This document shows positions 29,836 to 37,489 of a stretch of DNA of 64,000 bases, in pieces. The stretch is from a virus (lineage: Duplodnaviria; Caudoviricetes), in IMG/VR virus record IMGVR_UViG_2927713021_000002, positions 3,647-67,646 of that record; one strand, written 5' to 3'. Every line of letters starts with the position of its first letter. Within the stretch, counting starts at the first letter, position 1. Made by a program: the position numbers and the translations under genes. The notes beneath the pieces were generated by a model. It did no database searches and was not told the DNA's origin. It was given only the letters and a program-made list of their open reading frames with translations.

Positions 29836-30837
29836 TCACACCGCCTGACTGGTCTTCCGGAGGGTATATTCGGCAACACACCTGCAGCGGATACGCTCAC
29901 TGAGCGGAGCGCCAAGCGATGTGTCACACGGAAACATCAGCATGGCGCCGGCCGGAGAGATGAATGCCTGGCCTGCCATTACGGTCTGTCCGTTCATCTC
30001 GCCGTGGGTGCGCCGCTCTCGGCCATCCATCGTGGTCTTCCACTTCTTGGCGAAGGTGTATTGCCCATTGCTGCGCGCCGTGAGCTGCTGCCACCCCTCC
30101 TCTCGGCCCTTGTTGTAGGCCTCGGCAGTGTTGGTCTGTGCCAAAGCATCGGCGTAGGTGCTGAGCAGGCGCTGCGCATATGCCGTGGTGGCGCGGTCGA
30201 TGGTTGTCTTGGCGAGCGACTTTCCCGCCTCTATCGCCTCGCGAACCGCTGCATCAAACGCTGGGTCGCGGCGCACCCTGGTCAGGTAGTTGCGCATATT
30301 GCCCGGGTCGCCACTGGCGAGCTGGTCGCGCGCACGCTCGATTGCTTCGGCAGAAGCGCCGCTGAGACCAACGACCCCGCCAGTGCGGCGCCCGGTCTGC
30401 CGGCTCAGCCGTCCTGCCAAGTTCAGCGCTACGGTGCGCGCCGAGTCGCCACGGTCGCGACCCATCGACAACACTACACGCACCGCATCCGCCTGGTCAC
30501 GAGCCACCTGTTCCCGCAGCGCAGAAGCTTGGGCGCTCAGGAATTCACTCACGCTGCGATCGCTCATGTCGATCTCGCGGCGAACAACAGGGATGATGAT
30601 CGCCACCAGTTCCTTGCTGGCCCCGCGGGCATACGCGGCGCGCAGGCGTTCCAGCAGCACGGCCAGCAGGCCCAGCGATAGGATTTCAGCGATGCGATCC
30701 TCGTCATTGTCGTCTACGGCCTGCTCAAGCTGCGCGAGGCTGATGTAGCGAACGGTCTGGGCTACCTGCTCGAGGTAGGCCTGCTTGGCCTCGCCCTCCA
30801 GCCGCTTGATCTCGTCCTCTACCTCGGAGGCCTTCAT
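29836..30837 (-). CDS. Head morphogenesis / minor head protein (Mu gpF / SPP1 gp7-like)
   Basis: KKWKTTMDGRERRTH, MLMFPCD, IRCRC. Confidence 0.8.
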   Translation of the reverse strand: MKASEVEDEIKRLEGEAKQAYLEQVAQTVRYISLAQLEQAVDDNDEDRIAEILSLGLLAVLLERLRAAYARGASKELVAIIIPVVRREIDMSDRSVSEFLSAQASALREQVARDQADAVRVVLSMGRDRGDSARTVALNLAGRLSRQTGRRTGGVVGLSGASAEAIERARDQLASGDPGNMRNYLTRVRRDPAFDAAVREAIEAGKSLAKTTIDRATTAYAQRLLSTYADALAQTNTAEAYNKGREEGWQQLTARSNGQYTFAKKWKTTMDGRERRTHGEMNGQTVMAGQAFISPAGAMLMFPCDTSLGAPLSERIRCRCVAEYTLRKTSQAV

Positions 30838-31358
30838 ACGACGAACACCGCCACACCGCACAACCTGTTACTGCGCAGGAGCGGGGCCACCAACTCATCC
30901 ACTACGGTCAACACCGGGCGCGTCGGGACGCCGCCATCAGGCGTGGCCGTGGCCTGGTATTCGATCTCCAGCACGTCGACCTTCTGCCGCTTTATGGCCT
31001 CGGCGGCTACGTAGTCAGGGCTCAGGCTGCCAGGGTTCACCAGTTCGCGCAGAGCCGCCTCGTAGGTGGCCCGCTCAATCTCCGCTGGCACCTCGTCAGG
31101 CGGGATGGCCGCGCCTTCGTTGTCCGTTGCGCCGGTGCGGGGCCACTGGAGTTCCTGCGCCCGTCCACCGGTCTTCACGCCGGAGAACATCGACTCCCAA
31201 CGCCCGCAGCTGTTCTGCTGCTGGTACTTGCCGTCGATGTAGGCCGATGCCCTGATCAGCGCCGCCTGCTTCGCTTCGTCACTGCCGGCCCAGGCAGCAT
31301 TCGCCCGGGCAGAGTGGTAGGCGTCGGCGCCTGCGACGGATCCGTAGAATTCTGGCAT
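30834..31358 (-). CDS. Head-tail adaptor (DnaT-like family)
   Basis: YGSVAGADAYH...ALIRASAYID...QELQWPR...KVDVLEIEY. Confidence 0.75.
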   Translation of the reverse strand: MPEFYGSVAGADAYHSARANAAWAGSDEAKQAALIRASAYIDGKYQQQNSCGRWESMFSGVKTGGRAQELQWPRTGATDNEGAAIPPDEVPAEIERATYEAALRELVNPGSLSPDYVAAEAIKRQKVDVLEIEYQATATPDGGVPTRPVLTVVDELVAPLLRSNRLCGVAVFVV

Positions 31359-31793: not shown

Positions 31794-32753
31794 TCAGGCA
31801 GCCGGGGCGGTGATTTCATCGAGGTACGCGAAAGCGCCGGGCAGGCGAATCTCGGTACCGCCAGTGCGGGCGATGATGCCGGTCTCGAAGCCCATGATGG
31901 ACTTCTGGCGCGGCGCCAGGACGCGGCGAGGCATCGGCAGGTGGAAGCGAACCACCTCCGGGTCCTTGCGGTAGGCAACCAGACGACCACCGCCGTCCTG
32001 GGAGGCGTTGCGGGCCTCGCGCAGCGGCTGAATGTCCAGCGCCTGGCCGGTCTCGGCGGTGTAGATGTTGTTGCGGCGGATGAACTCCAGCACTGTCATG
32101 AAGCCGTCACCAGCCCCCATGCGGCGGGTGGCCAAGTCACGGAAGGCGTCTGGCGGCATGCGCAGGGTGTCCGCCCATTCCACCTCGCCGGTATTGGTGC
32201 GGACGCTGCTCAGCACGCCGTTGATGTCAGCCAGGATCTGGTCAACGGTCTTGCTCGCCCAGAAAGTCGAACTTCCGGTGCCGGTTGCGGCCGCATCAGT
32301 GCGGGCAACGATGGTGCTGTTCAGGAGGCCGGTCCAGTTCTTCTCGGTCGAGCCGCGCATGGCGATGTCGTTCAGCAGGCGCTCAACCTTGTCCGCGGCG
32401 CTCATGGCCTTGGTGTCGTTCAGGTTGACGCCATACAGAGCGGCTTGGTTGATTTCTTCCAGGTTCCACTCCCAGCCGGAGCCGATCATGGCGAAGTCGT
32501 GCGACGCCTGATCGCGGGTCACCTGGTTGAACGGCATGTCGGTACCGGCGCCGCTGAGGAACTTGGCCTCGCCGGCGGTATCGACGGTGAAGAAGGTGGT
32601 GCCGATAGCCCACGGCTGGCCTTCGGTCACGACCGGCACGTGCGCGGCGTAGTTGAAGGCTGGGTAGCGGCGTTGGTAGACGCGGGTCTCGATGTTACGG
32701 CCTTGGGCGATAACGAACGGGAGCGCCGCCTGAGCGTCTTCGAAGCGAGTCAT
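31794..32753 (-). CDS. Major capsid protein (DUF2184 family)
   Basis: GWEWNLEEI, TGLLNS, RTGGTEIRLP. Confidence 0.85.
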   Translation of the reverse strand: MTRFEDAQAALPFVIAQGRNIETRVYQRRYPAFNYAAHVPVVTEGQPWAIGTTFFTVDTAGEAKFLSGAGTDMPFNQVTRDQASHDFAMIGSGWEWNLEEINQAALYGVNLNDTKAMSAADKVERLLNDIAMRGSTEKNWTGLLNSTIVARTDAAATGTGSSTFWASKTVDQILADINGVLSSVRTNTGEVEWADTLRMPPDAFRDLATRRMGAGDGFMTVLEFIRRNNIYTAETGQALDIQPLREARNASQDGGGRLVAYRKDPEVVRFHLPMPRRVLAPRQKSIMGFETGIIARTGGTEIRLPGAFAYLDEITAPAA

Positions 32754-32771
32754 GTGGTAGTTCCCTCGGCC

Positions 32772-33257
32772 TTAGGCGGAAGCAATTGGGCGCAGGCCCA
32801 TGGAGATTTCGACGATGTCGCCGTTCGCGCCGGAGGTGTCGAACACGACATCAGGCAGCGGGCCGACGATGCCAGCGCCGGTGGCAGCGACGTAGCGGTT
32901 GGTGGTCGGGTTGTAGAACACCTCGCCGCCATCCACGACAGCGCCGCCAGCCTGGACCTTCATCGGACCCATGGTCATGAAGGCGCCGGTGAAGTACTGC
33001 GGGTAACCGTCGACCAGCTGGGAGCCCTGGGCAACCGGAGGAACGGCTGGGTTCAGCACCGCGAAGCCGATGAACACGCCAGCGGAGAACGGCACGACGC
33101 CATGGTCGCCCGAGCCGCGCTGGACCGGCGCACCAAAGCGGATGCCCTCAGCGTTCTCGACGGTGCGGGAGATCTTGTTGCACTTCTCCTCGCTGGCGAT
33201 CTGGCCGACCAGGCCCTTGGCCGGGGCATTGGTATAAGTGTTTTGGTAGGTAGCCAT
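32772..33257 (-). CDS. Capsid decoration/cement protein
   Basis: MATYQNTYTNAPAKGLVGQIA; lies between protease/scaffold and capsid genes. Confidence 0.75.
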   Translation of the reverse strand: MATYQNTYTNAPAKGLVGQIASEEKCNKISRTVENAEGIRFGAPVQRGSGDHGVVPFSAGVFIGFAVLNPAVPPVAQGSQLVDGYPQYFTGAFMTMGPMKVQAGGAVVDGGEVFYNPTTNRYVAATGAGIVGPLPDVVFDTSGANGDIVEISMGLRPIASA

Positions 33258-33269
33258 CGCTGGTTCTCC

Positions 33270-34403
33270 TTAGGCCTGGGCCGGGCGGTGGGCGGTTTGC
33301 ATGTCAGCGATCATCTGCAGGCGAGCCTTTTCAGCGTCGTCGCCGGTGGTCTTGCTGTCCTGCTGGATCATGTGCTGGCGGAAAGGGTCGCCGGCCGGGT
33401 TCTTCGCGGCGTCCTCGACCAGAAGGTCGAAGCGAGCGTCGATGTAGGCCTCGGTCTTGCCAGCAATGGCGGCGTCGCCCAGCTTGGCGATGACCACGGC
33501 CTTGCGGATCTCGGCATCGCCCTTGCCGGTGTAGTCAGCGTCAGCGATGGACTTGGCCTTGGTGACCAGGTCAGCGCGCGCCTGAACGCGCTTGTCGAGA
33601 TCCGCATCGCTGAGAACAGCTGCTTTCAGCTTGGTGATCTCGTCGTCCTTCTTGGCCAGCTCGCTGTCCTTGGCCGCCAGGGCCACAGCGTGCGCGTCGG
33701 TCAGGGTTTTGATGTTGACGCCCGCGTCGGCCAGCTGCTTGGTCAGCTTGTCGATCGCCTGGGCGCCCTGGTCGGTGGTTTGAACGGACAGGCCATCAAC
33801 AATGACCGTGCGCAGGGAATCAGCCATTTGATGGCCTCCTTTTGGGGGTTTGGGGTCGTTGTCACCGATGCGAAGCTTTTCGCCGCCTCGAGCGCGATGC
33901 TCCAGGCTGAGGTGATTCATTTTCATGGGCCCGAGGTAGACATCGAAGTGCTCGCCCTCGGGGGTTTGCCCATCCTGGAACACGACTTCAGCGCCGTACC
34001 CCATGGAGAGCTCGCGTTTGCCGGCCTCGTAGTCCTCGATGGCCTTGGCGTCCATCAGCACCAGCGGCACCTTGACGAACTCGCCATCGCGGACGACTTC
34101 GCCGCCGGTCTGGCCGATGGCGTGGTCTTTCCAGTTCTTGGCGTTGACGCCCTCGCCGCCAGGGTGGCCGTTGGTCATGGGCCGGTAGGCGTAGGACTGC
34201 ATGGCGTCCTTGTGGAAAACCGAGCTCTCCGGCCGGTACACCTTGACGATGGGCTTGTCGCGCAGGCCGTGCTCGTTGTCCGGGTCGATCTCGGTGCCCA
34301 GGTAGTCCTGAATGCCGGTGCGGGCGACCCTGGCCTCGGCCACCAGGTAACCGTCAGCCGTCCGCCGCACATTGGAAGCGGTGACAGAGTCTTGAAGGAT
34401 CAT
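33270..34403 (-). CDS. DUF2213 prohead protease/scaffold
   Basis: TADGYL, ARTGIQDY, GKRELSMGY, NHLSL..RARGG; C-terminal coiled scaffold. Confidence 0.85.
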   Translation of the reverse strand: MILQDSVTASNVRRTADGYLVAEARVARTGIQDYLGTEIDPDNEHGLRDKPIVKVYRPESSVFHKDAMQSYAYRPMTNGHPGGEGVNAKNWKDHAIGQTGGEVVRDGEFVKVPLVLMDAKAIEDYEAGKRELSMGYGAEVVFQDGQTPEGEHFDVYLGPMKMNHLSLEHRARGGEKLRIGDNDPKPPKGGHQMADSLRTVIVDGLSVQTTDQGAQAIDKLTKQLADAGVNIKTLTDAHAVALAAKDSELAKKDDEITKLKAAVLSDADLDKRVQARADLVTKAKSIADADYTGKGDAEIRKAVVIAKLGDAAIAGKTEAYIDARFDLLVEDAAKNPAGDPFRQHMIQQDSKTTGDDAEKARLQMIADMQTAHRPAQA

Positions 34404-34418
34404 GTTTGCCTCGAGCGG

Positions 34419-36212
34419 TTACTGCAGGTCTTCGAAGATCTCCGGCCCGAACTCGATCTTGCCGCGGTACGGCTCGACTTTGCTCAGGTCCAGCTCGCCG
34501 GCCTGGTAGGTGATGGTTACGTGCGGCTGGTACTCTTCGAAGTCCCAAGACGCCCCAGCCTCGCGGATCTGCATGTGTCGCCAGGCCAGTTCGGACGAGT
34601 TGAACAGCAGCACGACAGCGCCGTCGCTGCCCAGCGGCTCGACCAGGCGTGCGCCGCCAGGGGCGACGGTTAACCCGCCGTCCTGCCGACTGCCCCAGTC
34701 ACCGCCAACCTTCATCCAGTCCAGCGCCTGCCGGCTGTATGCGATGGTGACGTGCAAGTCTTCGGCCGGGACGGTGGTGTCGAAGCCTTGGGACTTTGCC
34801 CATGCCAGGATGTCGGCGCCGTTGGTGACCTTGCGCTGCACGTACAACGGCCGCGGGGCTGCGTCGCCGAGGGAGGCGGTGCGCGACGGGAGCTTGTTGC
34901 CCTCCTCGTCGATTTCCGGATCCTCCTCATCCGGCAGTTCGGCGCCGAACTTCTTGATGGCCGCCTCCAGCCCGGGCATGACGCTCTGCTCGACAAGCAA
35001 GTTGACCGAGGCTTGCGACAGGGCATCCTCAGGGAAGAGCCCCGCATCCTTGAGCACCTTGATCGTGTCCGCCGTGGTCTTGCCGATATCGGCGCGCTCT
35101 TTGGCGGTCGGTTGCCAGAGCGGCGCCCAGGTGTAATGGATCTCTTTCGGGCGATCACCCAGAGCCGAGCGGATGAGGCACTCGTCAAGCACACCCATGG
35201 CAGGCTTGATGTCCAGCTTCTGCCGGGAGGCGACGTTGTCGTAGTAATTTCGGGTGTTCTCTTCTCCGTTCGAGCCCAATCCGGTCGACGACTGTCCAAA
35301 CATACGGGTGATCGGGACATCGAACGCCCCGGCCACGCCCTGCTCTGTCTTGGCGATGACATCAGGAAGCGTGCTGAAGCTGGCCGACTTGGAGGTGTGG
35401 GTCTCCTGCCCGTCCAGTATCAGCGTGCCGTTGATGCCCTTGGCAGTTGCCGCCAAGCGCAGACGCTCGAGCAGCTGACGCTCGTAATTCTTGTCCTGCA
35501 TGCTCGTCATCAGGTTCGGGATATTGATGACGTCGATCTTTGCCTCGTAGACCAGGCTGACCACGTTGGCCACGGTCTCGTCGTAGCGACGCACGGCAGG
35601 CAGCGCAGCCAGCAGCACCGAATCACCCCAGCCGAAGCCGGCACCCATGGCTAGCTCTGGATCGGGGTGTGGCACGCCTACGAAGATGACCAGCCGGGAT
35701 GGGTGAATCTCAAGCTCAGAGCCTGGCAGCCGGTAAGCCTTGGGCTTTCCGTATCGTGGGCTTTGCGGGTCTTGCTCGATCTCAGTAGCCGATAGCTGTC
35801 GGCGAGTCATCACGGTCAAGTACTTGATACCACCTTGACGGATTGAGTCAGGCTTTAGCTCGGTTGAAGTGTTTCGGTCGCCGGTACCGATGAATAACGC
35901 AGCGCCGCCGAACAAGCGAGACTTCAGCAGAGCCTCAAGGATCTTGCCCTTTACATTCAGCCGCTCTTCCTCGGCCTCGATGAGCTCAATCTGCTCTTTG
36001 TTGGCCTGCCAGCTGCGCCAGTTCCGGCACGCATCGATCGCTGGAATACTCACACCTTTCTGCGCAGTCCACGAACCTCGGAATGCGTTCAGCAGTTGCT
36101 GGTCGTCCATCTCCGGCACGGTGTAGTGCGAGTGGGATGACTTGTCGCGCGCAGTACCCAGTCCAGCGACAAGGTTCTGCAGGCTGTCCTTGATGAAGGT
36201 GTATGCGCTCAT
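34419..36212 (-). CDS. Portal protein (DUF1073 family) fused to C-terminal Acb1-like 2H phosphoesterase
   Basis: Portal motifs RLFGGA, IHPSRL, PITRMFGQSSTGLGS, NYYD; C-terminal ~147 aa with LHVTIAYS and PHVTITY. Confidence 0.88.
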   Translation of the reverse strand: MSAYTFIKDSLQNLVAGLGTARDKSSHSHYTVPEMDDQQLLNAFRGSWTAQKGVSIPAIDACRNWRSWQANKEQIELIEAEEERLNVKGKILEALLKSRLFGGAALFIGTGDRNTSTELKPDSIRQGGIKYLTVMTRRQLSATEIEQDPQSPRYGKPKAYRLPGSELEIHPSRLVIFVGVPHPDPELAMGAGFGWGDSVLLAALPAVRRYDETVANVVSLVYEAKIDVINIPNLMTSMQDKNYERQLLERLRLAATAKGINGTLILDGQETHTSKSASFSTLPDVIAKTEQGVAGAFDVPITRMFGQSSTGLGSNGEENTRNYYDNVASRQKLDIKPAMGVLDECLIRSALGDRPKEIHYTWAPLWQPTAKERADIGKTTADTIKVLKDAGLFPEDALSQASVNLLVEQSVMPGLEAAIKKFGAELPDEEDPEIDEEGNKLPSRTASLGDAAPRPLYVQRKVTNGADILAWAKSQGFDTTVPAEDLHVTIAYSRQALDWMKVGGDWGSRQDGGLTVAPGGARLVEPLGSDGAVVLLFNSSELAWRHMQIREAGASWDFEEYQPHVTITYQAGELDLSKVEPYRGKIEFGPEIFEDLQ

Positions 36213-37489
36213 GGATTGCTCACGTTTGCGAGTGTGTAGCCGCCCGCAATCGGGAAGCGCTGAACAATGAAGTAGCCGAGTGCGTCGACCGGGTCTTCAG
36301 TGCCGTCTTTGTTTGGTTCGCCCTTGTCGGTGTAGGCCTGCTGCTCGAGCACCCCGGTAGTGACCGGGCAATTGTCGGTGTTCACCAGATAGCGCCTGTG
36401 AGCCTCTCCGTTGAGGAGCATTGCGTTGACTGCCAGCACCCTGTCCCGAACCTCAGGGTTCGACGGGTTGACCATCACAGGGAATCCTGCGGCCCGGAGC
36501 AACGTGTGGTCGGACTCGCTACCGTTGACGCTCTTGCGGTTCTTTCCGCTGGCGTCGGGATAGACGGTGATGCTGTGTCCGGGGAAGCGCCGCTTAAGCT
36601 CTTTGATCATCGCCGGCGTATCGAACAGGCTTGTGGCCTCCTCGAGCAGCATGGGCAACCCGTCGCGGATGACGTGAATAGTTGCCGCCATCCGGTTGAT
36701 GTTGAAGTCCATGCCGACATGGAGCTGTTCGCCTGGGCGAATCGTGGCGTTGGTGTGGTTCTTGTGCCGGCAGAAGTTCGGGTAGACGCTGCCCGACGTC
36801 AGGTTGACGAACAGGCCGTCGATGTAGGCATCCACCAGGTTGGCCGGGTATGACTTGCGCAGAGAGGGAATGTAGTCCTTTGGCAGGTTCTTGGCGTTCT
36901 GCCGCGTGGACGCATGCACGATGCCGTAGAACTGGCGCTGCGTTGGATCGGCGGCCAGCTCCTTGACGAACTTGCGGTAGACCCAGTTGAAGCCCTCAGG
37001 CGTTGTCGTCACGTCGATGGTGTTCGTGTCACGGCCAGGCCATACCGTCGACATACGCGCAATGATCTTCTTCCAGGCACTGTCCGCCTTCTTGATCGGC
37101 ATGCAGTCGATCTCATCGACCAGGGCGTGCGCGATGTTGAAGCCGACGATCCGGTGCGGGTGCTCCATGCTCTTGCAGACAATGGTGCTCAGGCAGCGTC
37201 CCTTGCTGTCTCGCAGGTAAACGCGCTTGTTGCTGGCAACGATGTCAGCGAACAAGCCAAACGCCTCAGCAACGCCCGGCAGCGTGTCGTAGAAGATGTC
37301 CGTGATCTGCGGGTAGGTCGGCGCGAAGTAGCCCTGAGGAATGCCAGGGAACTCCAAGGCGTTGATGCACATCCGCACGCAGCCCACGAAGGTCTTTCCG
37401 CTGCGGTAGCCGCCCACGAACGCCATGAACTTGTTGTGCGACTTGATGAACTCAAACTGCGGCTTGTTCAGCATCAGGACAGGACGCAT
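36209..37489 (-). CDS. Terminase large subunit
   Basis: Walker A GGYRSGKT, Walker B LVDE, TTTPEG, nuclease GMDFN, YPDASG, DALGY. Confidence 0.93.
   Translation of the reverse strand: MRPVLMLNKPQFEFIKSHNKFMAFVGGYRSGKTFVGCVRMCINALEFPGIPQGYFAPTYPQITDIFYDTLPGVAEAFGLFADIVASNKRVYLRDSKGRCLSTIVCKSMEHPHRIVGFNIAHALVDEIDCMPIKKADSAWKKIIARMSTVWPGRDTNTIDVTTTPEGFNWVYRKFVKELAADPTQRQFYGIVHASTRQNAKNLPKDYIPSLRKSYPANLVDAYIDGLFVNLTSGSVYPNFCRHKNHTNATIRPGEQLHVGMDFNINRMAATIHVIRDGLPMLLEEATSLFDTPAMIKELKRRFPGHSITVYPDASGKNRKSVNGSESDHTLLRAAGFPVMVNPSNPEVRDRVLAVNAMLLNGEAHRRYLVNTDNCPVTTGVLEQQAYTDKGEPNKDGTEDPVDALGYFIVQRFPIAGGYTLANVSNP

Follow-up and report, generated by a model that had tools for sequence, protein, structure and literature searches.

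A head protease that cuts after Asp may act twice in the head of the prophage described here, once on the capsid protein and once at the junction between the portal protein and an Acb1-type domain fused to its C terminus. We propose that the freed Acb1 is then packaged and delivered to the next host, a reading to which we give an even chance of being correct. The evidence on which it is built consists of the motifs and their conservation, the fold of the protease, and the Asp/Ala cut of the TLS and T1 capsid homologues. From these we infer that the junction is cut, that the product is retained in the capsid and ejected, and that Acb1 acts on CBASS signals. The head genes lie within the window, by which we mean the whole 64,000-nt stretch of DNA that was analyzed (Table 1).

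Table 1. Head-module features of the window, with coordinates, strand, and basis of assignment
Feature	Coordinates	Strand	Basis
Portal gene, 597 aa: portal core plus Acb1 domain	34419..36212	-	Pfam, PDB homology
Portal N-terminal I7-K8-D9-S10	36183..36194	-	Translation and coordinate check
Portal acidic C-terminal tail/linker, residues 424-447	34872..34943	-	Unconserved; ~3.7 bits entropy upstream of motif
Junction motif L448-G449-D450-A451, proposed cut D450/A451	34860..34871	-	Translation, DNA, coordinate check
Acb1-type 2H phosphodiesterase domain, residues 451-597 (147 aa)	34422..34862	-	Pfam PF23474
DUF2213 head protease (N half) plus scaffold (C half), 377 aa	33270..34403	-	Pfam, PHROG
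Protease domain, residues 1-180, predicted T4 gp21-like fold	33864..34403	-	AlphaFold2 model
Protease N-terminal L3-Q4-D5-S6	34386..34397	-	Translation and coordinate check
Nested scaffold start: SD 33835-33841, ATG of M193 33825-33827, M-A-D-S 33816-33827	33816..33841	-	
Cement protein, 161 aa	32772..33257	-	Pfam Phage_cement
Major capsid protein, 319 aa, PF09950	31794..32753	-	Pfam Major_capside
Capsid F4-E5-D6-A7, predicted cut D6/A7	32733..32744	-	Aligned with T1 and TLS sites

The first-pass annotation had reported a shared hydrophobic-x-Asp-(Ala/Ser) motif near the N termini of the portal, protease, nested scaffold, and capsid proteins and again at the portal-Acb1 junction. Translations, the DNA, and a coordinate check placed all five instances where they had been claimed, and L-G-D-A does lie directly after the acidic stretch AELPDEEDPEIDEEGNKLPSRTAS, ahead of the phosphoesterase. 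The Acb1 domain is also, as stated, without an SD and start codon of its own: the only in-frame start-like codons nearby are a TTG (residue 456) and a GTG (residue 458), neither of which has a purine-rich SD upstream, and the missing SD rules out a separate translation start for this domain. The internal ATG of the scaffold (M193) has the SD AAGGAGG 7 nt upstream; anchoring succeeded in 38 of 71 relatives, all 38 retaining SD and ATG, and failed in the other 33. A free-standing copy of the scaffold probably arises from this nested start as well. Among the ATG-initiated open reading frames of at least 80 aa in the window, [LIVMF]-x-D-[AS] occurs at a frequency of 0.0027 per position, and 8 of these 173 frames, including the three head genes, carry it within their first ten residues. 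The cement protein had no match in the motif scan. These observations on motif placement and on the missing start are therefore confirmed, and the interpretation attached to them, that the head protease frees Acb1 from the portal, is partly supported.

The candidate protease is the DUF2213 protein, which matches Pfam DUF2213 at residues 14-181 and PHROG 530 (“head maturation protease”) and has the invariant residues D5, H80, S133, and H164. An AlphaFold2 model of its protease domain, built on 37 sequences (pLDDT 88.3), had T4 gp21 (5jbl_A) as its best structural match, with a Z score of 11.6, an rmsd of 2.5 over 137 residues, and a Foldseek E value of 5e-4 (probability, 1.00) at ~10% sequence identity; the next matches were the herpesvirus proteases of VZV (Z score, 7.4), CMV (5.2), and KSHV (4.6). 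Modeling the whole protein from a single sequence gave nothing usable (pLDDT 39.5), alignment by hhalign of 12 DUF2213 proteins to one S78-bearing protein as a single template gave a probability of 0.4, and an ESM Atlas search returned only unnamed or YonD_N clusters. NCBIfam has no entry that covers the protease, the cement protein, or the capsid protein. The modeled fold suggests that the DUF2213 protein combines a serine head protease of the gp21/assemblin fold with a scaffold. T1 and TLS carry DUF2213 proteins as well (E of 1e-16 between the protein here and that of TLS), and the annotation of the T1 and TLS head-gene stretches examined shows no protease-like gene other than DUF2213.

For the capsid protein, an Asp-directed head protease is well grounded. 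D-A is present in all 70 unique N-regions, and the protein matches Pam3 8hdt and T1 9kzj. According to the available part of the TLS report, Edman sequencing gave ASDMGIW as the N terminus of the mature capsid protein (PMC11447400); in the TLS sequence this peptide corresponds to residues 28-34, directly after ...AKND, i.e., after D27. The T1 cryo-EM capsid model, as described in the available part of its report, spans residues 27-319 of 319 (PMC11945409) and thus begins at A27, which is preceded by ...VKQD26. T1 D26-A27 is aligned with D6-A7 here by HMMER, and TLS D27/A28 is aligned with the same pair by BLASTP at a constant offset of 21. The same part of the TLS paper surmised that 45 residues are removed (PMC11447400), which is at odds with the TLS sequence. 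Both of these experimentally supported sites have Lys at P3, so the hydrophobic P3 residue of the motif as originally described, while common, is dispensable.

The wider claim that an Asp-directed protease trims the head proteins in general fared less evenly. The N-terminal L-Q-D-S of the protease was favored as a cut site by D5, which is present in 65 of 65 unique N termini, with F, L, I, or M at residue 3 in all of them and a following residue that is A in 27, S in 22, K in 6, T in 4, R in 3, and D, V, or H in 1 each. It was weakened by the prediction that D5 sits within the first beta-strand of the fold (residues 2-14), a strand that aligns with gp21 from residue 5. Portal D9 is likewise conserved (53 of 56 representatives), but what comes after it is usually Gly (G 30, S 11, T 7, R 4, K 2, N 1), with no instance of A, and a G/S/T-L-x-N-L-V pattern follows; I-K-D-S is correspondingly less convincing as a cut site. 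The M-A-D-S of the nested scaffold is present at M193 with its SD but is limited to a subset of the family; other members have M-T-L-K-T-V at this position. Thus, a structural role may explain two of the five instances, those at the N termini of the portal and the protease. In Pa193, the first 93 residues of the portal were neither resolved nor detected by LC-MS, and the DUF2213 homologue was visible only at residues 286-326. The scaffold half contains 7 motifs, compared to 1.3 expected from shuffles (p ~1e-4), and none of the Glu version, an enrichment that could come from coiled-coil periodicity. Sites resembling the capsid cut site also lie near the C terminus of the DUF2213 protein in T1 (K-N-D-A-A-P) and TLS (K-Q-D-A-A-E).

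These mixed results raise the possibility that the shared motif is partly coincidental, with the Asp capping a helix in both the portal and the capsid protein and belonging to the first strand in the protease, so that only the capsid site is truly cleaved. The strand placement of D5, the G/S/T-L-x-N-L-V pattern after portal D9, and the lack of conservation of M-A-D-S all fit this idea, and we rate it a serious contender, a little short of an even chance. It does not readily account for the junction motif, which has no such structural excuse: a hypervariable linker precedes it, and it varies with the carrier.

Conservation at the junction is the check that had been proposed for the linker Asp across portal-2H fusions, and the Asp proved to be conserved. 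Among 143 diverse portal-Acb1 fusion representatives, D is found in 135 (8 lack it) and A in 113, and P3 is V, I, L, A, F, or M in 124; positions upstream of the motif are unconserved (~3.7 bits of entropy). A second set gave D in 56 of 56 and A in 49 of 56, and further loci gave D-A in 59 of 59 unique junctions, with DUF2213 also present in 52 of those loci. The Pam3 junction reads V-T-D-A-T-P-R. Stand-alone Acb1 proteins, which start M-K-T-L-Y-V and similarly, lack the motif, as do seven fusions on other carriers (Portal_Mu, PF04860 plus MuF, S78, MuF, and three unknown). Long Acb1 fusions number 1372 in total. Three fusions to PF04860 portals read S-K-A-A-P-R, with K replacing D, yet their Acb1 domain is 73-74% identical. 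A search of three collections for the genomic context of one of these, P0346, returned only PF06381-type loci.

The domain beyond the junction matches Acb1 (PF23474) at residues 455-597 with an E value of 3e-43 (147.3 bits; cutoff, 27) and Acb1 PDB 7t26 with an E value of 2e-10. Acb1 is an anti-CBASS phosphodiesterase, as in phage T4 57B and Erwinia phage FBB1 (PDB 7t26/7t27). Both 2H catalytic motifs are present (H487-V-T and H564-V-T), H487 being invariant and H564 nearly so in 56 sequences. The domain may be active on CBASS signals; if freed, it would be 147 aa (residues 451-597) and 16.2 kDa. The portal core matches Phage_portal_3 (PF06381) at residues 38-385 (E of 7e-94), and the protein matches the Pam3 portal 8hds over its full length (E of 2e-160) as well as the E217 and T1 portals, giving homology to a solved dodecameric portal.

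We hypothesize the following cuts in prohead maturation. The DUF2213 protease would cut after Asp in an often hydrophobic residue-x-Asp/Ala (or other small residue) context, trimming the capsid protein at D6/A7. The Asp-Ala-rich scaffold would very likely be chopped up. The portal would be cut at D450/A451, a site that would lie within the shell because the portal C terminus faces the capsid interior. The products would be a 49-kDa portal and twelve free 16-kDa copies of Acb1 per particle, which are too large to leak out and so would remain alongside the DNA until they pass into the next host. There, the delivered enzyme would be in place to break down the cyclic-nucleotide signals of CBASS, a route comparable to the delivery by T4 of its processed internal proteins and Alt. 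Two features may work against this scheme: twelve folded 16-kDa domains may be unable to pass the tail channel, and the action of CBASS may come so late that packaging the enzyme brings no benefit.

Another explanation is that Acb1 stays tethered and acts in the cytoplasm late in infection, as CBASS signals rise, on free portals or rings, so that the fusion gives only late timing and coexpression and D-A-x-P-R caps or docks the domain. The available part of the Pam3 text mentions neither cleavage nor a protease; the supplement of the Pam3 genome paper gives mass spectrometry data as presence/absence only, and a flexible tethered domain would be as invisible in structures as a cleaved one. P-R-x-L-Y-V is common to the junction block and some stand-alone Acb1 proteins, and part of the block therefore belongs to the fold; the motif could have been passed down in a single portal-Acb1 lineage as an element that marks the boundary or docks the domain. 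Where Acb1 is lacking, the portal terminates inside the acidic tail (24 of 74 Pseudomonas loci). Closely related phages differ in whether the portal is fused (48) or unfused (24), which would make Acb1 an optional add-on whose removal is unnecessary. Against tethering, D-A falls outside the Pfam Acb1 model, which begins at residue 455, and is missing from stand-alone forms; K-A takes its place on another portal family despite a closely similar Acb1; the junction motif is the same as the capsid cut site of this head module, as far as the available T1 and TLS accounts describe it; and a tethered domain inside the prohead would be cut off from cytoplasmic signals. On balance, we consider permanent tethering unlikely. 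If the junction is cut, it might instead be cut only to clear the inner mouth of the portal for packaging, the enzyme having done its work before assembly in the producing cell and the freed copies not being usefully delivered. The evidence for cleavage is identical for this explanation and for ours, and only 12 copies per particle are in keeping with it. However, PF06381 portals also carry ADP-ribosyltransferase or Zeta-kinase domains after Acb1, cargo that is sensible mainly as injected effectors (PMC5512222, from the available part), and other fusion partners of Acb1, namely MuF, S78 and S78_2 proteases, and further portals, likewise belong to the head interior. We regard mouth clearing as the sole purpose as improbable.

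The portal-2H fusion itself was already known (2017; PMC5512222), and what this analysis adds is the proposed rule of cleavage and the site at the junction; the available parts of the literature on Acb1 portals, DUF2213 proteases, and virion anti-CBASS fusions state neither an Asp-Ala rule nor a junction cut. The rule is predicted for DUF2213, a widespread head protease family that is still catalogued without an assigned function, and is anchored on published, previously unconnected T1 and TLS data. The loose idea of packaged portal-2H enzymes becomes a single-residue hypothesis, D450/A451, with predicted products of 49 kDa and 16.2 kDa. If true, it would provide a route by which anti-CBASS enzymes, and possibly other effectors, travel as virion cargo, and mature termini could be annotated more accurately in many capsid and portal proteins. 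More tentatively, and with some doubt, DUF2213 could be a large unrecognized family of Asp-specific (x-x-Asp/Ala) prohead proteases, and PF06381 portals could be polyprotein carriers that, via a conserved Asp-Ala site, release Acb1, and in relatives also ADP-ribosyltransferases and Zeta-type kinases, for injection; enzymes that counter defense would then reach the cell ahead of any phage gene expression.

Among known systems, the architecture here is that of the phage “polyvalent proteins,” in which portal/MuF-2H fusions were described by Iyer, Burroughs, Anand, de Souza, and Aravind in 2017, with an effector domain on a head-interior carrier (portal or MuF). The available part of that paper proposed capsid packaging and degradation of signaling nucleotides, with release by metallopeptidase domains and no mention of a head maturation protease or Asp-Ala site (PMC5512222). 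The Pam3 portal gp3 (8hds) is a full-length homologue that includes the Acb1 domain, in the same head-gene order; its authors name gp5 a scaffold, and the extra portal domain goes unmentioned in the available part of their text. Compared with free Acb1 (T4 57B and FBB1), the domain here shares the PF23474 and 7t26 matches and two H-x-T motifs but is C terminal to a portal and preceded by an Asp-Ala motif that free Acb1 lacks. T4 gp21 cuts after the acidic residue in Leu/Ile-x-Glu, removing targeting peptides from proteins that are later injected, and T4 delivers processed internal proteins and Alt into the host. The DUF2213 domain, for which gp21 is the best structural match, would differ in having Asp rather than Glu at P1 and in acting on a carrier that is the portal itself rather than a short targeting peptide. 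T1 (gp47/gp50) and TLS (gp36/hspA) have portals without Acb1, and their capsid proteins lose 26-27 residues, versus the predicted 6 here; they share the capsid (PF09950), cement, and DUF2213 families with this phage and, in the available accounts, are cut after the aligned Asp.

The window is a provirus record with its head module on the minus strand (see the table). In Pfam searches, the Acb1 domain of the portal scored 147 bits, where the cut-off is 27. The closest named phage was Pseudomonas phage phiPSA1 (76% identity across the entire portal), and at least 80% of the portal was covered in 33 of 2,301 matching phage records. Here the capsid and adaptor genes precede the MuF-like gene, which directly follows the portal gene in Pam3, T1, and the Rhizobium phages.

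Features of the head module and the portal-Acb1 junction
Feature	Position	Strand	Description
Large terminase	36209-37489	-	Head module
Portal, 597 aa	34419-36212	-	Phage_portal_3, residues 38-385; Acb1 (PF23474), residues 455-597 (Pfam)
Junction motif L448-G449-D450-A451	34860-34871	-	Directly after acidic stretch of portal
DUF2213 protein, 377 aa	33270-34403	-	Head maturation protease (PHROGs)
Scaffold half of DUF2213 protein	33270-33827		
Cement protein	32772-33257	-	Head module
Major capsid protein	31794-32753	-	Head module
MuF-like gene	29836-30861	-	Head morphogenesis

The first-pass annotation had proposed that an Asp-directed prohead protease trims the head proteins at a hydrophobic-x-Asp-(Ala/Ser) motif and frees the Acb1 domain from the portal. 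Translations, DNA, and a coordinate check placed all five instances where it had put them (portal I-K-D-S, protease L-Q-D-S, nested scaffold M-A-D-S, capsid F-E-D-A, and junction L-G-D-A). A cut after D450 would leave a product of 147 aa (16.2 kDa) and a 49.3-kDa portal, as computed. No Shine-Dalgarno sequence was found upstream of the Acb1 domain, in agreement with the claim that it lacks such a signal plus a start codon. In the DUF2213 protein, AAGGAGG lies 7 bases upstream of an internal start, Met193, and both were kept in 38 of 38 anchored relatives (71 examined; the 33 unanchored were left out of the count). The frequency of [LIVMF]-x-D-[AS] in window ORFs was 0.0027 per position; three matches in three head-gene N termini are therefore unlikely to reflect chance, and conservation provides the firmer test.

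The capsid D-A pair was present in all 70 unique N-regions from fetched loci (ORFs whose match fell short of the profile start were excluded) and in 8 of 8 PF09950-type capsid proteins from named phages. Window D6-A7 aligned to D26-A27 of the T1 capsid protein (HMMER), which is built for residues 27 to 319 of 319 in the cryo-EM model (PMC11945409). In TLS, a T1-like phage, the capsid protein from virions read ASDMGIW by Edman degradation (PMC11447400). These are residues 28 to 34 of the TLS protein (gene L092:1088-2062), directly after ...G-A-K-N-D27, and D27 falls opposite window D6 (BLASTP). The TLS paper conjectured a loss of 45 residues (PMC11447400), but the sequence indicates 27. A DUF2213 protein adjoins the capsid-module genes in both phages. 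We conclude that capsid D-A is a real cleavage site in these relatives, and the window capsid is very probably cut between D6 and A7.

DUF2213 residues 1 to 192 were modelled from 37 sequences (pLDDT 88.3). Compared with 48,161 solved chains, the model came closest to gp21, the capsid assembly protease of T4 (Z 11.6, rmsd 2.5 Å, 137 residues), which Foldseek also recovered (E 5e-4). Herpesvirus proteases followed (Z 7.4, 5.2, and 4.6), with MCE-domain proteins scattered among them (Z ~5). H80, S133, and H164 were invariant among aligned relatives. The model points to a gp21-like protease. T4 gp21 cleaves after Glu in Leu/Ile-x-Glu, and little change would be needed to reach an Asp-directed relative. 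As a further hint, the DUF2213 proteases carry K-N-D-A-A-P (T1) and K-Q-D-A-A-E (TLS) near their own C termini.

The shared-motif reading was weaker for the portal and protease N termini and the nested scaffold. The portal N-terminal Asp occurred in 53 of 56 sequences, but the next residue was mostly Gly and never Ala. Protease D5 was invariant (65 of 65) but sits in the first strand of the predicted fold, and the residue after it varied (A 27, S 22, K 6, T 4, R 3, others 3). M-A-D-S was limited to one subgroup of the family. Other observations are hints in favor of the proposal. In the Pa193 virion as described, the DUF2213 homologue is visible at residues 286 to 326 only, and the first 93 portal residues are neither visible nor detected by LC-MS. 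The scaffold half held seven motifs versus 1.3 expected from shuffles and no occurrence of the Glu version; coiled-coil periodicity could be an alternative source of this enrichment. This half has an Asp:Glu ratio of 25:6 in 185 residues, unusual for a helical scaffold, and several of its D-A sites are kept in relatives (e.g., K-L-G-D-A-A at 307 to 312).

At the junction, the linker Asp proved conserved across portal-2H fusions, as anticipated. Among the best 150 representatives of 50%-identity clusters, 143 had Acb1; with residues numbered backward from the L-Y-V Leu, position -6 was D in 135, -5 was A in 113 (M 9, S 9, and G 5 among the others), and positions -9 to -14 were unconserved (~3.7 bits each). 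A hydrophobic P3 had mixed support, with V/I/L/A/F/M at -8 in 124 of 143 junctions but Lys at the T1 and TLS capsid sites. D450 was invariant across 56 aligned fusions, and D-A occurred in 59 of 59 unique junctions on PF06381-type portals from further loci, 52 of which also encode DUF2213. The junction block was present in every fused portal of 75 Pseudomonas loci; 24 of 74 Pseudomonas portals terminate in the acidic tail without Acb1. In these prophages, portal cores are 80 to 88% identical, with Acb1 in 48 loci and without it in 24. Portals lacking Acb1 stop inside the acidic tail, which implies frequent gain or loss of the domain.

The Pfam Acb1 model begins downstream of the motif, and the motif tracks the carrier, not the enzyme. 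Free-standing Acb1 proteins on long contigs start M-K-T-L-Y-V or similar; three PF04860-portal fusions, with Acb1 73 to 74% identical to the window's, read S-K-A-A-P-R-T-L-Y-V, and a fourth reads Q-K-S-M-Q-P-R. The motif was absent from seven other fusions (Portal_Mu, PF04860 plus MuF, S78 protease, MuF, and three unknown partners), although a nearby D-T occurs in two. We give cleavage of the junction by the head protease an even chance, and putative delivery of freed Acb1 to the next host would be less probable still.

Several relatives depart from this layout. Two stand-alone Acb1 ORFs, P0050 (Ensifer adhaerens, 171 aa) and P0047, retain a short leader followed by I-T-G-D-A-A-P-R or V-D-D-A-A-P-R and look like detached portal tails. 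The 481-aa portal of Rhizobium phage RHph_N28_2 (L090:5783-7228) lacks Acb1 and retains P-I-G-D-A-T, after which comes a short basic tail, possibly a deletion remnant; its close relative RHph_TM3_3_3 has the complete domain. In Synechococcus phage Yong-M3-232 (L086:1464-1717), an exact 127-nt tandem duplication (99%) in the linker breaks the fusion into two ORFs, a portal of 486 aa and an Acb1 of 183 aa that has its own Met; the fusion is intact in the sister phage Ssp-JY40, and the split could be an assembly artefact or natural. As another hint in favor of the proposal, Acb1 in related portals is preceded or followed by ADP-ribosyltransferase, Zeta-kinase, MuF, or S78 domains. Among representatives, 37 portal-Acb1 proteins have extra C-terminal domains (ADPrib_exo_Tox, Zeta_toxin, unknown), and others have S78 protease, ART, MuF, or FAD oxidoreductase between portal and Acb1. 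A linker motif of the type N-P-x-Q-P-R-D-P-x-G-x-x-x-G-G-Q-W/F recurs after Acb1.

Pam3 speaks against the proposal: its portal, homologous over the full length and including Acb1, has the junction V-T-D-A-T-P-R. The published description divides it into five canonical parts, and the available structure text makes no mention of cleavage; a flexible tethered domain would be as invisible as a cleaved one. NCBI names such portals "anti-CBASS protein Acb1 family protein." Fusions of 2H domains to portal or MuF were reported in 2017 by Iyer et al., who suggested that they are packaged in the capsid and degrade signalling nucleotides (PMC5512222). New here are the connection of the T1/TLS capsid cut with the gp21-like fold predicted for DUF2213 and the carrier-specific Asp-Ala candidate site ahead of the cargo.
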